Part shown: one piece after another, positions 17,719-33,064 of the stretch
Numbering within the stretch: position 1 is the first letter of the stretch
How the letters are laid out: every line of letters starts with the position of its first letter
NCBI GenBank assembly: GCA_964409365.1
Contig: CAYPCX010000001.1
Span: 312,699-376,698, forward strand
Origin: an uncultured Planctomycetia bacterium
Lineage (GTDB): Bacteria; Omnitrophota; Gorgyraeia; Tantalellales; Tantalellaceae
Direction: 5' to 3'
DNA length: 64,000 nucleotides
The notes under the pieces: model-generated
Databases searched by the model: none
The model's input: the letters and a program-made list of their open reading frames with translations, nothing else
Told to the model about the DNA's origin: nothing
Position numbers and translations under genes: made by a program

Positions 17719-17770
17719 TCTTAAAACCTGAGACCTGAGACCTGAGACCTGGAACCTGTGGCCTGATTTT
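17719..17770. repeat. CCTGAGA heptamer tandem repeat (about 5 units)
   Basis: cttaaaacctgagacctgagacctgagacctggaacctgtggcctga; the same motif recurs at 32980-33012. Confidence 0.8.
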
Positions 17771-17859
17771 GACAATTCAAAATAGTTAGTGTATTATTAT
17801 TTATCAGTCAGATGTGAGATAATATAATTGGATTTTTCCATAATACCTGGAGGTTACTC

Positions 17860-19269
17860 ATGGGTGTCATTCAATCCCTTTCCGTGGGCCGCAAAAGCTT
17901 GAAGTATAAGATAATGATAGCTTTTTCGCTGATGTCCATCATCCCGCTTCTGGTAGTCGTCTATTTTGTGACCAATTACGTCTTCCCTTACACTAAGAAC
18001 ATGACGCAGGTCAGCATCATCGTGCTGTTCACGCTGTGGATATCCTGGCTGGGATATCTCTTGATAAGACAGATAATCAACCCGGTGATAGACCTCGCCT
18101 TCGAGACCAAGATCATAGCCGAAGGAAAATACGGCTCGAAAGTGGCGCTTTCCACCGAGGACGAGCTGGGGGATATAGCGGAAGCCGTTAACGCGATGAC
18201 CGGGAAGATCCGATGCTATATAGGCGAGCTCCAGGATTACAGCAAAAAGACGGCGGCCCTGAACGTGCGCATACACAAGAAGGTGATCACGCTCACCAAC
18301 CTTATGCGGCTCGGTGACCTCATAAGCACCGGCACGGGGTTCGATGAGGTGATCAGTTTCGCGGCGGAGAAGATAGCAGAGGAGGTGGAGCAGGGTTTCT
18401 GCGCTATCTTCGTGAAGGAGAAGACCGGCGGTTTCGCCCTGAAGTCCTTCGCCAACAATACCGGAAAGGAATTTTCGAGCGCGCACCTCGAATCCACTGT
18501 CATATCCCTTGAGAGGATACTCATGCGGGACGAACACGTCATGGTGGATTCGCGTCCGCTGTCAAAGCCCTGGCAAAAACAGCTCCGGGAAAAGATGGGG
18601 CACGTCAACGCGCTCTTCTTCGGCATGAAGTCCACCAACAAGATGGTCGGGGCCATGGTGATGGGTAATTTCTCGGAAGATATGGAGTTCGAGGACGAAG
18701 AGATCGGTGTGGTCAGGGCTTTCGAGCGCGAACTGGTCCTCGGTTTCCAGAGCAGCCAGGTGTTCGAGAGGATCAAGAGCCTGGAGGTCGTGGACAGCCT
18801 TACGGGTCTCTATACCCGCGTGTACCTTGAGGACCGCCTCGAAGACGAGATCAACAGGGCCATATTCTACCAGAGGCCGTGCTCGCTGATACTTATCAAG
18901 GTCGACGATTTTGAGAAATATTCGGGCCACTACGGCGTGCCCAAGGCCAAGCACGTCCTGAGGCAGCTGGCGCAGCTTCTCGGCGGGGTCATGTCGCCGG
19001 TCGGGAAGGTCGCCCGTTTTGAGTACGACGAGTTCGCCATGCTGCTTCCCGAAAAGAACAAGCGCGAAACGATAGAAGTGGGCGAAGATATCCGCAAGCG
19101 TATCGAGGCGATGGAGCTTTCCAGCGATCCCTATGACAAGATAACGGTGAGCATCGGCGTGGGGGAGAACCCCATAGACGGGACTAACGCGAAAGAGATA
19201 ATAGCCAGGGCCTATTACAACATGGAAAAGGCCAAAAGCCTGGGAGCGAACAGGGTCGTAGGGGAATAG
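17860..19269 (+). CDS. Membrane-anchored HAMP-GAF-GGDEF-like protein with a degenerate active site (EYDEF instead of GG[DE]EF)
   Basis: N-terminal TM helices, HAMP-like segment, GAF-like region, C-terminal GGDEF fold (DSLTGLYTR...RFEYDEF...SIGV) lacking GG and lacking an RxxD I-site. Confidence 0.7.
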   Translation: MGVIQSLSVGRKSLKYKIMIAFSLMSIIPLLVVVYFVTNYVFPYTKNMTQVSIIVLFTLWISWLGYLLIRQIINPVIDLAFETKIIAEGKYGSKVALSTEDELGDIAEAVNAMTGKIRCYIGELQDYSKKTAALNVRIHKKVITLTNLMRLGDLISTGTGFDEVISFAAEKIAEEVEQGFCAIFVKEKTGGFALKSFANNTGKEFSSAHLESTVISLERILMRDEHVMVDSRPLSKPWQKQLREKMGHVNALFFGMKSTNKMVGAMVMGNFSEDMEFEDEEIGVVRAFERELVLGFQSSQVFERIKSLEVVDSLTGLYTRVYLEDRLEDEINRAIFYQRPCSLILIKVDDFEKYSGHYGVPKAKHVLRQLAQLLGGVMSPVGKVARFEYDEFAMLLPEKNKRETIEVGEDIRKRIEAMELSSDPYDKITVSIGVGENPIDGTNAKEIIARAYYNMEKAKSLGANRVVGE

Positions 19270-19292
19270 ATAAGAACGGACAAGGTAATAAA

Positions 19293-30990: not shown

Positions 30991-32820
30991 ATGGCAGATA
31001 AAAAACATAGCTTTCCGGTAAGATGCATCGCTGTCATGCTGACAGTTGTATTTCTGCATTTTGCCGTGTGTTTCGATTCTTACGGGCAAGTGGATACCGC
31101 CACGGGGAGCGCGGTGGTCATTGCCGAGGAGATAAAGCAACCGCTCCCCGAGCCGGGCAACGTGACAGTGAATTTCAAGGACGTCGACATAAAGACGATC
31201 CTGCACTATCTTTCCGAGGTGAGCGGCGTGGATATAATCCCGGCTCCCGGCGTGGATGCCAAGGTGACGATGCGGCTCAGGGATAAACCGTGGGAGGTCG
31301 CCCTTGATATCGTTACCCGGAACTACGGCTACGTCTACTCCCGGGAAGGCGAGATCATAAGGGTTATACCCAAGGGCAAGCTCCAGGCGGAAGAGCCTAT
31401 CACCGAGGTTATATCCTTGAACCATATAATAAGGGACATAGAGCTTGTCGAAGAGGAGACCACGGAGACCGTGTCCATACGGGAAAAGCAGGAGACCATA
31501 CAGCAGATCATGTCGGCGATAAACTCCATCCTTGACAAGAAAAGAGGCGAGAAGGCCACGTATATATCCGGTGCGAATGCCATAGTCGTGACCGCCGTTC
31601 CGGCCCGTATAAGCAGTATAAAAGAGATGATCAAGCGGCTGGACAGGAAGACACCGCAGATACTGCTTGACGCGAAGGTCATCGAAATATCGCTTAACGA
31701 TGACGAACGCTTCGGCATCGACTGGAACACGGTGATAACGGCGGCCGGTGCCCGCAGGCCCATAACATTCCCGTTTAATAATATCGGTGTTTTACCGTGG
31801 TTACCCGGTAGCCAGAGGGATTATTATGCGAGGGCCGGTTCTGTGGGCGGGGCGATATCAGACCCCAACATATCCACGACTATACCGACTATTGATGTGC
31901 AGACATTAGCAGATCCTTTGGCTGCTGCGGCAGATAACGCCATATTTTCCTTTGGCACCTTGGATTTCAGCACTTTTCAGGCCACGTTAAGCCTGCTTGA
32001 CCAGAGGGGTGATACCGAGATCATCTCCTGTCCACGTGTCACCACGCTGAATAACCAGAAAGCCACCATAAAGGTCATCGAGAAGATAATGCTGCAGAAG
32101 ACGCAGGAGACGACGCAGACGGCCGGTATCGTTACGGTCGAGTTCGAAAAAGAGAGCGAGGCCAGGGAAGTGGGCGTGAAGCTGACGATCATACCCCACG
32201 TGAACAAGGACGGCGAGATAACCGTGAACCTGATGCCGGAAGTTTCCACCAGGGTCGGGGAGAACGACGGGTTCGACGTCATACCGGTCGGCGGTTTTCT
32301 TAATACCGTGGCCCTTACTTTCTCATCAAGAGAAGCGAACACTCGGGTGAGGGTGGTGGACGGCGACACGATCTTTATCGGCGGCCTTATCAGGGATAAC
32401 GTGGCGATGACGGATAACAAGTTCCCGATACTGGGTGATCTTTTCGGCGGGATACCGGTTTTGGGGAACGCGTTCAGGTATGAAAGAGAGAACGTAACCA
32501 AGTCCGAAATAGTCTTCTTTGTTACCGTGCATATTGTAAAAGAAGGCAAGGATACCATCGTAAAGTCGCAGTCGACAGCCGCGTATGATAAATACGTCCC
32601 CCGGTTCGGGGGAACCGGTAGCGGGAAAGCGCAGGCTGAGAAGAGCGGCCTGGTCTCGATCGTTGAGGTAGAGGGGGAGGAGGAGGAACGCCCCGAGACG
32701 AATACCGTGAATGCGGGGACGATGGCGGTTTCCGAAACGACGGTGCCTATAGCCGTGATGAACACCGACGAGAAGAAGGAATACAAGCCTTTCCTTGATT
32801 TCAGGAAGAAAAAGCAGTAA
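30991..32820 (+). CDS. pilQ: Type IV pilus secretin PilQ
   Basis: Secretin_N repeats and C-terminal secretin domain (TIFIGGLIRD...FPILGDLFGGIPVLGNAF...). Confidence 0.9.
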   Translation: MADKKHSFPVRCIAVMLTVVFLHFAVCFDSYGQVDTATGSAVVIAEEIKQPLPEPGNVTVNFKDVDIKTILHYLSEVSGVDIIPAPGVDAKVTMRLRDKPWEVALDIVTRNYGYVYSREGEIIRVIPKGKLQAEEPITEVISLNHIIRDIELVEEETTETVSIREKQETIQQIMSAINSILDKKRGEKATYISGANAIVVTAVPARISSIKEMIKRLDRKTPQILLDAKVIEISLNDDERFGIDWNTVITAAGARRPITFPFNNIGVLPWLPGSQRDYYARAGSVGGAISDPNISTTIPTIDVQTLADPLAAAADNAIFSFGTLDFSTFQATLSLLDQRGDTEIISCPRVTTLNNQKATIKVIEKIMLQKTQETTQTAGIVTVEFEKESEAREVGVKLTIIPHVNKDGEITVNLMPEVSTRVGENDGFDVIPVGGFLNTVALTFSSREANTRVRVVDGDTIFIGGLIRDNVAMTDNKFPILGDLFGGIPVLGNAFRYERENVTKSEIVFFVTVHIVKEGKDTIVKSQSTAAYDKYVPRFGGTGSGKAQAEKSGLVSIVEVEGEEEERPETNTVNAGTMAVSETTVPIAVMNTDEKKEYKPFLDFRKKKQ

Positions 32821-32924
32821 GGCGGCTTTTTTGCGAGAGGGGACCCCTTGGCTTTGCCGGGGCAAGGCCTGCGAGGGACAAGGGTTTATATATATTCGCT
32901 AGTGATAGCCCCCTATTTCGGGTG

Positions 32925-33012
32925 TAAGGTGTAAGTTTTCAGGTGTTAGGTGGAGGAAGAAGACACGTCTTTTTCCAAAGGCCTGAAACCTGAGACCTGA
33001 CACCTGGAAACA
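32925..33012. repeat. ~90-nt hairpin-plus-heptamer element (GGTGTTAGGTGGAGGAAGAAGACACGTCTTTTTCCAAAGGCCTGAAACCTGAGACCTGACACCTGG), family 3, copy 1
   Basis: Homologous copies at 37865-37960 and 45866-45955; its 3' part is the CCTGAGA heptamer also present at 17719-17770. Confidence 0.8.
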
Positions 33013-33064
33013 GGGATTTTCCCAAATATCCCGCCTTTGTCCTTCGATCCTTCACTGTTTTGAT

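Follow-up and report, generated by a model that had tools for sequence, protein, structure and literature searches.

A type IVa pilus operon between the TIGR03960 and DUF2344 genes: gene order in relatives points to an old arrangement within Omnitrophota and to heptamer repeats that are not insertion scars

How did a type IV pilus operon come to lie between two genes that are direct neighbors in most loci from other phyla? The question is raised by the window analyzed here, a 64,000-nucleotide (nt) stretch of contig CAYPCX010000001.1 (assembly GCA_964409365.1) from an uncultured bacterium of the Omnitrophota, in which the gene for a TIGR03960 B12-binding radical SAM protein and the gene for its TIGR03936/DUF2344 partner stand 15.3 kb apart. 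Both proteins scored above the NCBIfam cut-offs, which confirmed where a first-pass annotation of the sequence had ended the one gene and begun the other (Table 1). Thirteen pilus-related genes lie between them, all on the + strand, in the order HAMP-GGDEF-like, pilT, MshEN, pilB, pilB, pilC, prepilin, membrane+TPR, pilM, pilN, pilO, pilP-like, and pilQ; Pfam and NCBIfam matches bore out the co-directional gene list given earlier. The first-pass annotation took this stretch to be a complete pilus module inserted into a housekeeping block, with CCTGAGA heptamer repeats at both junctions as possible recombination scars. The evidence points to a different history, in which a type IVa pilus operon very probably became lodged between TIGR03960 and TIGR03936/DUF2344 early in Omnitrophota and has been inherited vertically since, the CCTGAGA arrays being unrelated to its arrival.

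Gene order outside the phylum was examined in a scan with the radical SAM protein that kept one genome per species and yielded 80 loci, mapped by tblastn. Among the non-Omnitrophota loci with enough downstream sequence, the radical SAM gene was followed directly by DUF2344 in 61 of 70, with a median gap between matches of 116 nt, and most of these contiguous loci ran on with rng-rplU-obg-proB-proA-nadD; the claim that radical SAM, DUF2344, and rng form a block conserved elsewhere was thus upheld. The CCTGAGA motif occurred 0 times in the radical SAM-DUF2344 spacer of the contiguous non-Omnitrophota loci. In 7 of 60 loci, TIGR03960 and DUF2344 were fused as one open reading frame (ORF) of 830–900 codons (L023, L025, L031, L039, L045, L047, and L054, from Calditrichia/Caldithrix, Latescibacterota, and two Clostridia-labelled metagenome-assembled genomes), the genes that lie 15 kb apart in the window being a single polypeptide there. 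A wider string, mreBCD-mrdA-rodA/TIGR03960/TIGR03936/rng/rplU-rpmA-obg-proBA-nadD, is found in Bacillota, Acidobacteriota, Calditrichota, and Latescibacterota, and the flanks of the window hold the same genes in the same order and orientation, including mreB-mreC-mreD-PBP2-rodA upstream of the radical SAM gene. Unlike that string, the window has two interruptions, one of 15.3 kb separating TIGR03960 from TIGR03936 and one of 6.7 kb separating rng from rplU, and its TIGR03936 protein is reduced to the N-terminal half. The usual partners expected after DUF2344 (rng, rplU, rpmA, and obg) are all present, but five pilus-type genes split rng from rplU. Since radical SAM and DUF2344 are contiguous in other phyla, an insertion did occur; the evidence does not support a recognizable event with surviving scars.

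Within Omnitrophota, the picture is different. The nearest radical SAM homologues were labelled Omnitrophota, two of them being binned as Planctomycetia. Five of the six Omnitrophota reference-genome loci (L001–L004 and L006; radical SAM 46–66% identical) have the order rodA-radSAM-GGDEF-pilT-MshEN-pilB-pilB-pilC(-pilin) of the window. For the downstream side, a metagenome scan based on rng gave one close relative (L081), and the sample was widened via DUF2344 homologues and their contigs to seven independent contexts (L081/L099, L093, L094, L095, L098, L100, and L101). All seven have pilMNOPQ-short DUF2344-rng (DUF2344 43–70% identical), with pilQ-DUF2344 spacers of 2, 17, 26, 30, 103, 178, and 285–294 nt. 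The TIGR03960-TIGR03936 pair is likewise apart in these relatives, and an empty site, with radical SAM joined to DUF2344, was found in none of the Omnitrophota examined, only in other phyla. No CCTGAGA array was present at either junction in the relatives examined. A comparison of synteny had been proposed as a search for an empty site with a single repeat; its outcome was that relatives share the interleaved order and none carries the repeat. Judged from this gene order, the interleaved layout is ancestral within Omnitrophota.

The recent arrival of a complete and mobile pilus module, its CCTGAGA direct repeats being target duplications or recombination scars, would account for the 28-nt direct repeats of 93% identity in both junction spacers and for the contiguous housekeeping block of other phyla. 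It is nevertheless highly improbable. Relatives with protein identities as low as 43–46% keep the same order, lack the repeat, and often have hardly any spacer. The composition of the pilus block, for which a deviation in GC skew and codon usage had been suggested as a check, matches that of its flanks: GC at third codon positions (GC3) amounts to 0.685 inside the block and 0.688 outside it, the genes of block and flanks do not differ in codon bias (p = 0.69), the block's pooled codon-usage distance, 0.087, sits inside the range of all other runs of 13 consecutive genes (0.066–0.107), and GC and GC skew are flat over both junctions. No integrase, transposase, or recombinase domain was detected in the window ORFs scanned, and ARAGORN found no tRNA or tmRNA genes in the 64 kb. 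None of the features tested as marks of a genomic island (integrase, deviant composition, empty sites, unique end repeats, and tRNA site) was found. The module is also incomplete, its minor pilins lying beyond rng and outside 17719–33064, and no prepilin peptidase (A24) was matched among the window ORFs scanned; the PilD gene may sit elsewhere in the genome. The locus is therefore unsuitable as an example of recent modular insertion, as it is not a mobile island and its repeats are not scars.

The repeats themselves tell against a scar as well. At the upstream junction, a lone CCTGAGA array comes after the stop codon of the radical SAM gene and before the -35 hexamer of the putative operon promoter, and its RNA fold is no better than those of shuffled sequences (z = +0.3), that is, unstructured. 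At the downstream junction, the (CCTGANA)n array is one arm of a hairpin-forming composite element in the pilQ-DUF2344 spacer, which has two further copies in the window; the left arm of this element is (GGTGTAA/CAGGTGT)n at 32921–32952, and the whole folds at -44.4 kcal/mol (z = -5.4), with 0 of 200 shuffles as good. The two arrays are indeed direct repeats, identical at 26 of 28 nt (family D5), but they do not mark the junctions alone: members of the CCTGAGA family lie at 8 sites, spread over 7 spacers and in both orientations, yielding 13 same-orientation pairs, each of which brackets some segment of the window. The inverted copy between mreC and mreD matches the upstream junction array at 25 of 28 nt, and CCTGAGACCTG with at most one mismatch occurs 13 times in the window against 0.85 expected. 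The scar interpretation did not survive these results, since the repeats belong to a heptamer background and are absent from relatives with the same gene order.

That background is extensive. Strict period-7 arrays cover 792 nt of the window vs. 213, 107, 34, and 0 nt for periods 5, 6, 8, and 9; 90% of their bases are found in non-coding sequence, which makes up 8% of the window, and 11 of the 34 spacers of at least 30 nt contain them. The remaining array bases overrun the last codons of lspA and DUF2344, encoding the last 27 codons of the former (ending …KTEDRGQKTEGRRCQEDVRCWLLDVSC and stop; 6393–6477) and the last 7 of the latter (33373–33394); both genes appear to have lost their original stop codons to array growth. 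Units found with Tandem Repeats Finder were CCTGAGA, ACAGAGG, GATGTTA, ACTAACA, ACTTGAT, ACTGGTT, and AGTCACA. Arrays of (ACAGAGG)n reach the start codons of pilN (29254–29288) and tsaD (60301–60358) directly, so that the purine-rich repeat would supply a Shine-Dalgarno-like sequence, a likeness to the TAACTGA repeats found before start codons in Beggiatoaceae. The same array families recur in 19 kb beyond the window (L102 824–854, 2349–2426, and 4653–4689; L103 14965–14992 and 18404–18486). The window lies on contig Ga0309772_1000029 of JGI metagenome 3300029258. Two other assemblies are 100% identical to the window (a contig of JGI sample 3300029267 over 16 kb and a contig of ENA ERZ27256778 over 22 kb), and the arrays are therefore not assembly artefacts; no array-length polymorphism was seen among the three assemblies of this genome, which is uninformative on mutability. 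Spacers of relatives also hold heptamer arrays, usually fewer and with other units (AATCGTG, GTATTGA, TACGAGA, TGGCTCA, and GCAGGAT). Because the units differ, the arrays are genome-specific and much younger than the gene order. By these comparisons, the junction repeats are ordinary members of the heptamer repeat family of this genome and not insertion scars.

The history proposed here is that a standard type IVa pilus operon that carried a promoter of its own settled between the radical SAM gene and its DUF2344 partner deep in Omnitrophota history, and that the layout was then passed on vertically. In the clade of the window, minor-pilin genes would also have come to lie between rng and rplU, placing DUF2344-rng inside an extended pilus region. 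The junction arrays would be young, genome-specific heptamer mosaic elements of the kind present in about one-third of the spacers of co-directional strings, the downstream copy as the arm of a stable hairpin and the upstream copy as a lone array just before the operon promoter. Several points weigh against this account. In one Omnitrophota reference locus (L007; radical SAM 59% identical), the genes that follow radical SAM are msrAB and gdh (L007 8520–12681), and one downstream context (L095 1–5317) has the fatty-acid synthesis genes plsX, fabH, and fabD before TPR-pilMNOPQ-DUF2344-rng; gene order is therefore not immutable in Omnitrophota. About a dozen Omnitrophota contexts were sampled, so that "phylum-wide" is an extrapolation. 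The two junction arrays are the best-matching pair of the CCTGAGA family, and the promoter, the cyclic di-GMP (c-di-GMP) input, and the glycosyltransferase role described below were deduced from sequence only. The pilus operon inside the radical SAM-DUF2344 pair serves as a stable synteny marker for Omnitrophota.

Table 1. Genes, junction arrays, and composite repeat elements of the locus (window coordinates; aa, amino acids).
Feature	Coordinates	Strand	Evidence or description
TIGR03960 B12-binding radical SAM gene	15976..17718	+	NCBIfam TIGR03960 639 bits, cut-off 462; Pfam Radical_SAM_N2 and Radical_SAM
Upstream junction array (CCTGAGA)n, ~6 copies, lone	17724..17766	+	Tandem Repeats Finder 17726–17766, period 7, 5.9 copies
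Putative sigma-70-type promoter	17769..17797	+	Consensus match; TTGACA-17 nt-TATTAT, TG upstream of -10
Membrane HAMP + degenerate GGDEF protein	17860..19269	+	Pfam GGDEF 101 bits, HAMP
pilT-type retraction ATPase	19293..20360	+	Pfam T2SSE, 355 aa, without MshEN; Walker A GATGSGKS
Stand-alone MshEN protein, candidate c-di-GMP receptor	20367..20813	+	Pfam MshEN; NCBIfam NF053729 69 bits, cut-off 38
Two pilB-type extension ATPases	20822–22537 and 22534–24252	+	Pfam T2SSE and MshEN each, 466 and 450 bits
pilC platform protein	24260..25480	+	Pfam T2SSF, two stretches
Major prepilin, 114–117 aa	25648..26001	+	Pfam N_methyl; TIGR02532 above cut-off; GFTLVE motif
Polytopic membrane domain + C-terminal TPR protein ("TMTC-like"), candidate GT-C glycosyltransferase	26096..28009	+	TPR matches
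pilM, pilN, pilO, pilP-like	28222..30933	+	PilM_2 160 bits; PilO 63 bits; PilN 23.0 bits, cut-off 22.8
pilQ secretin	30991..32820	+	Pfam Secretin 137 bits, STN, Secretin_N
Downstream junction array (CCTGANA)n, right arm of type-2 hairpin	32982–33011	+	Tandem Repeats Finder, period 7, 4.1 copies
Half-size TIGR03936/DUF2344 gene, 103–109 aa	33065..33394 (public gene call starts 33083)	+	118.5 bits, cut-off 71.9
rng (RNase G/E family)	33493..35043	+	Pfam RNase_E_G 349 bits, S1, thioredoxin-like domain
Second pilus block, five pilus-type genes	35149..41654	+	N_methyl matches; weak PilX_N and GspK N-terminal matches
rplU, rpmA (42302–42544), obg, proB, proA, nadD: rest of conserved block	41774..46528	+	Pfam
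Type-1 elements	6390–6609 (lspA-lgt), 11841–12225 (mreC-mreD), 15742–15975 (rodA-radSAM)		Shared core, fixed array order
Type-2 elements	32916–33012 (pilQ-DUF2344), 37866–37960 (unk763-unk419), 45866–45960 (proA-nadD)		Alignment A1
Further composite-element sites	14422–14643, 42089–42282, 40380–40472		

The pilus genes encode the component families of a type IVa pilus (T4aP). PilB and PilT ATPases, PilC, PilM/N/O/P, PilQ, and a prepilin with an N-terminal cleavage/methylation motif were all identified, and the locus is predicted from these families to encode a conventional type IVa pilus machine, with two PilB proteins for extension, PilT for retraction, PilC as the platform, PilMNOP as the alignment complex, PilQ as the secretin, and a short major pilin. 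The two PilB paralogues are 45% identical to one another and have Walker A motifs. The matches to T2SSF, PilM_2, PilO, and Secretin exceed their cut-offs by a wide margin. The PilN match is barely over its cut-off, and the pilP-like assignment comes from gene position and a T2SSB match of 31.1 bits (cut-off 28.4). The operon probably has its own promoter: the candidate before the first gene matches the consensus at 11 of 12 positions, tied as the best with two others within 15.5–35.4 kb, and TTGAC(A/T)-N17-TAT..T is found at the equivalent position in L001, L002, L003, L004, and L006 when spacer sequences are compared by eye. Folds calculated after pilQ gave no sign of an intrinsic terminator, being no better than shuffles (z = 0.06 and 0.03).

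Two genes at the start of the operon suggest an input from a second messenger. The GGDEF protein lacks a GG[DE]EF motif and reads RFEYDEF, with EYDEF in the place of GGDEF; the domain is therefore degenerate, and a role as a sensor or receptor is more likely than cyclase activity. In the stand-alone MshEN protein, the c-di-GMP-binding motif is intact (NF053729). A degenerate GGDEF domain beside MshEN suggests sensing rather than synthesis of the second messenger at the pilus locus, and c-di-GMP input would likely pass through the stand-alone MshEN protein and the degenerate-GGDEF membrane sensor. The gene after the prepilin encodes a protein in which TPR gave the only domain matches; neither a PDB sequence search nor Pfam returned a family for its N-terminal membrane domain. 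For homologues 42–51% identical, precomputed hits to PF02366 (PMT) and/or PF13231 (PMT_2) are on record, and some of these homologues are named "protein O-mannosyl-transferase" by JGI. These hits agree with the "TMTC-like" label given in the first-pass annotation and are the sole source of the PMT/GT-C relationship. The gene is kept after the pilin gene in L081, L095, L098, and L099. Because of the hits on homologues and the position after the pilin gene, glycosylation is possible, and the protein may modify the pilin.

The second pilus block, between rng and rplU, encodes a 138-aa minor pilin, a 763-aa pilin-like protein (GFTLTE) with no recognizable domain besides the prepilin motif, and three tandem PilX/GspK-like paralogues (37973–39127, 39160–40326, and 40488–41654) with mutual identities of 55–77%. 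Orthologues of the block occupy the same position in L081/L099, L095, L098, and L101, with one PilX-like copy each. In the most divergent contexts, L093 and L094, minor pilin genes lie upstream of pilM, and the gene after rng is rplU or a single TPR gene, an arrangement which suggests that the second block was relocated later, within the clade of the window. Heptamer elements also occupy the spacers of the second block (37870–37955, 39130–39140, and 40380–40472), and a CAGGTNT-type array precedes each of the three PilX-like paralogues (37874–37891, 39130–39140, and 40459–40472). The heptamer arrays might on this evidence be recombination substrates that shape the region locally, for example by producing the tandem triplication of a gene that is single-copy in relatives, and a rearrangement role has been suggested for long heptamer arrays in Bacteroidetes (MacGregor, PMC4679880). 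This is a distinctly unlikely explanation: at 55–77% identity among the paralogues the duplications are old relative to the arrays, each array could simply have come with the upstream region when a gene was duplicated, and the three assemblies show no array polymorphism.

The heptamer arrays are in part organized into composite elements that share non-repetitive cores (alignments A1 and A2). Type-1 elements keep the order (CAGGTCT)n, (ACAGAGG)n, the unique core ACGTAGATGCCAGGAGGATGTTAGAT, and (GTTGTTA)n, followed by (ACTAACA/ACAACTC)n, (ACTTGAT)n, CACTTTATCCTTTATCC, and (ACTGGTT)n; partial or inverted copies lie in the PBP2-rodA and rplU-rpmA spacers. In type-2 elements, a small palindrome stands in the center, between a (CAGGTNT)n left arm and a (CCTGANA)n right arm. 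Fold z-scores were -5.4, -3.7, and -4.2 for three elements and -1.3 to -2.3 for three others. An Rfam scan of the whole window returned no family at the gathering score, and the elements thus do not belong to a curated RNA family. Small ORFs that begin in the AGGAGGATG core of type-1 elements were considered and rejected, as they are unconserved between the three spacer copies compared by eye.

REP/BIME sequences of enterobacteria are short, species-specific, dispersed mosaics of inverted hairpin units, ~35 nt and palindromic, found in co-directional spacers, and cyanobacterial STRR sequences are intergenic heptanucleotide tandem repeats. Like REP/BIME as generally described (a likeness to that description rather than to a model), the elements of the window are dispersed, homologous, hairpin-forming, and mosaic; they differ in being built of tandem heptamers and not of ~35-nt palindromic units. 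A tentative proposal, possible but not favored, is that the arrays, rather than being plain products of slippage, make up an undescribed, genome-specific REP/BIME-like mosaic family, in which inverted arrays around short unique cores would be copied between spacers. In RNA they would form hairpins or bind proteins and would punctuate long co-directional strings by way of processing, stability, or translational coupling, the junction repeats being incidental. Intergenic TAACTGA heptamer repeats are known from Beggiatoaceae, Cyanobacteria, and some Bacteroidetes (MacGregor 2015, PMC4679880). The arrays described here resemble them in having 7-nt tandem units, in being almost all intergenic, in mixing units within a spacer, and in sometimes abutting start codons. 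The unit sequences differ, however, with no Tandem Repeats Finder array of TAACTGA consensus, and the window arrays are combined into composite elements that recur, share cores, and have hairpin-forming inverted arms. Literature searches returned no description of heptamer or tandem repeats in Omnitrophota, and the window thus documents heptamer-based mosaic elements in a phylum for which none was found.

The DUF2344 protein that closes the pilus block covers model positions 2–95 of 209, the N-terminal half. All 116 DUF2344 homologues found (P0001–P0116) are 82–141 aa long, and those with a named source are nearly all from Omnitrophota, whereas DUF2344 proteins of other phyla have a length of ~240 aa or form a fusion with the radical SAM protein. 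The last 7 codons and the stop codon of the window gene sit inside an (AGTAAAC)n array (33373–33405); truncation by this array was rejected as the cause of the short form, as 116 of 116 homologues are equally short. The idea that the long form is an internal duplication, with the half-size protein acting as a homodimer, was unsupported, as a short-form profile matched only the N-terminal half of long proteins. The AlphaFold model of the short protein is a confident one, with a pLDDT of 91, and its best Foldseek matches among solved structures covered one half of the TruA/Pus1-type pseudouridine synthase catalytic domain (E ~1e-3, TM 0.65–0.69). These borderline matches hint that DUF2344 could be an RNA-binding module partnering the radical SAM enzyme, which is only a lead; it fits the RNA- and ribosome-related neighborhood of rng, rplU, rpmA, and obg. 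Literature searches on the function of DUF2344, TIGR03936, and TIGR03960 returned nothing relevant.

The constancy of the short form and of its position could also reflect selection. The order would then be kept because DUF2344-rng, and perhaps the radical SAM gene, are co-transcribed and functionally coupled with the pilus genes, for example through RNase G processing of a long pil transcript or through action of the radical SAM/DUF2344 pair on a pilus-related substrate, and loss of the DUF2344 C-terminal half would be part of a change of role. The adjacency of pilQ and DUF2344 in all seven contexts, with spacers of 2–30 nt in four, is compatible with co-transcription, and every Omnitrophota homologue found has the half-size form. 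L095 keeps TPR-pilMNOPQ-DUF2344-rng and minor pilins together although the upstream half of the locus lies elsewhere, and pilus genes flank DUF2344-rng on both sides in the clade of the window. Such coupling is nonetheless unlikely. The loci examined in other phyla have radSAM-DUF2344-rng-rplU linked, and no pilus genes were detected among these; at least 84 kb of this genome are co-directional, so a conserved order may be simple inertia; and pilQ and DUF2344 of the window are 244 nt apart, with a strong hairpin in the spacer. Nor did the literature searches lend support to an order kept by selection. The synteny and the half-size partner together raise a testable question about the role of this uncharacterized enzyme pair.

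The spacer between DUF2344 and rng (33389–33470) holds a structured segment of its own. A heptamer-derived hairpin, AGTAACCAG…CTGGTTACT, is followed by a second stem, GGGGTACC…GGTACCC, and a T run; the fold of the whole spacer has z = -3.4 and that of the second stem alone z = -1.3. The structure could be a terminator or an attenuator-like element before rng.

T4aP genes are reported to be common in all classes of Omnitrophota and have been linked to host attachment (Seymour et al. 2023, PMC10066038). The window shares its component families, minor pilins included, with the type IVa clusters of Pseudomonas and Myxococcus (pilBTC, pilA, and pilMNOPQ) and with Omnitrophota T4aP loci. It differs from known clusters in holding all core genes in one co-directional string with two PilB paralogues, in adding a stand-alone MshEN gene, a degenerate-GGDEF sensor, and a GT-C/TPR gene after the pilin, and in having its minor pilins split from the core by DUF2344-rng. 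No "symbiotic" F-type ATPase of the type described by Seymour et al. (PMC10066038) adjoins the pilus locus of the window. No mention of a pilus operon between TIGR03960 and TIGR03936 was found in the literature searched. This is a pilus system of a known kind in a phylum known to have it, and its position is a synteny observation, not a new system; what is gained is a compact description of an Omnitrophota pilus operon whose machine has been proposed to serve in attachment to host cells (PMC10066038).

A few observations concern gene calls and the wider string. The radical SAM ORF opens at 15916 (TTG), and the true start is probably near 15976, beyond the heptamer arrays; tblastn matches in relatives begin at residues 19–27 of the long ORF. 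The rpmA gene call was taken from L096. Every gene in at least 84 kb (window 1–64000, L102 1–9604, and L103 11200–20363) lies on one strand, in an extreme co-directional string that spans the dcw cluster, mre, pilus genes, ribosomal protein genes, gatCAB, polA, and rho, and GC skew is positive across the whole of it.

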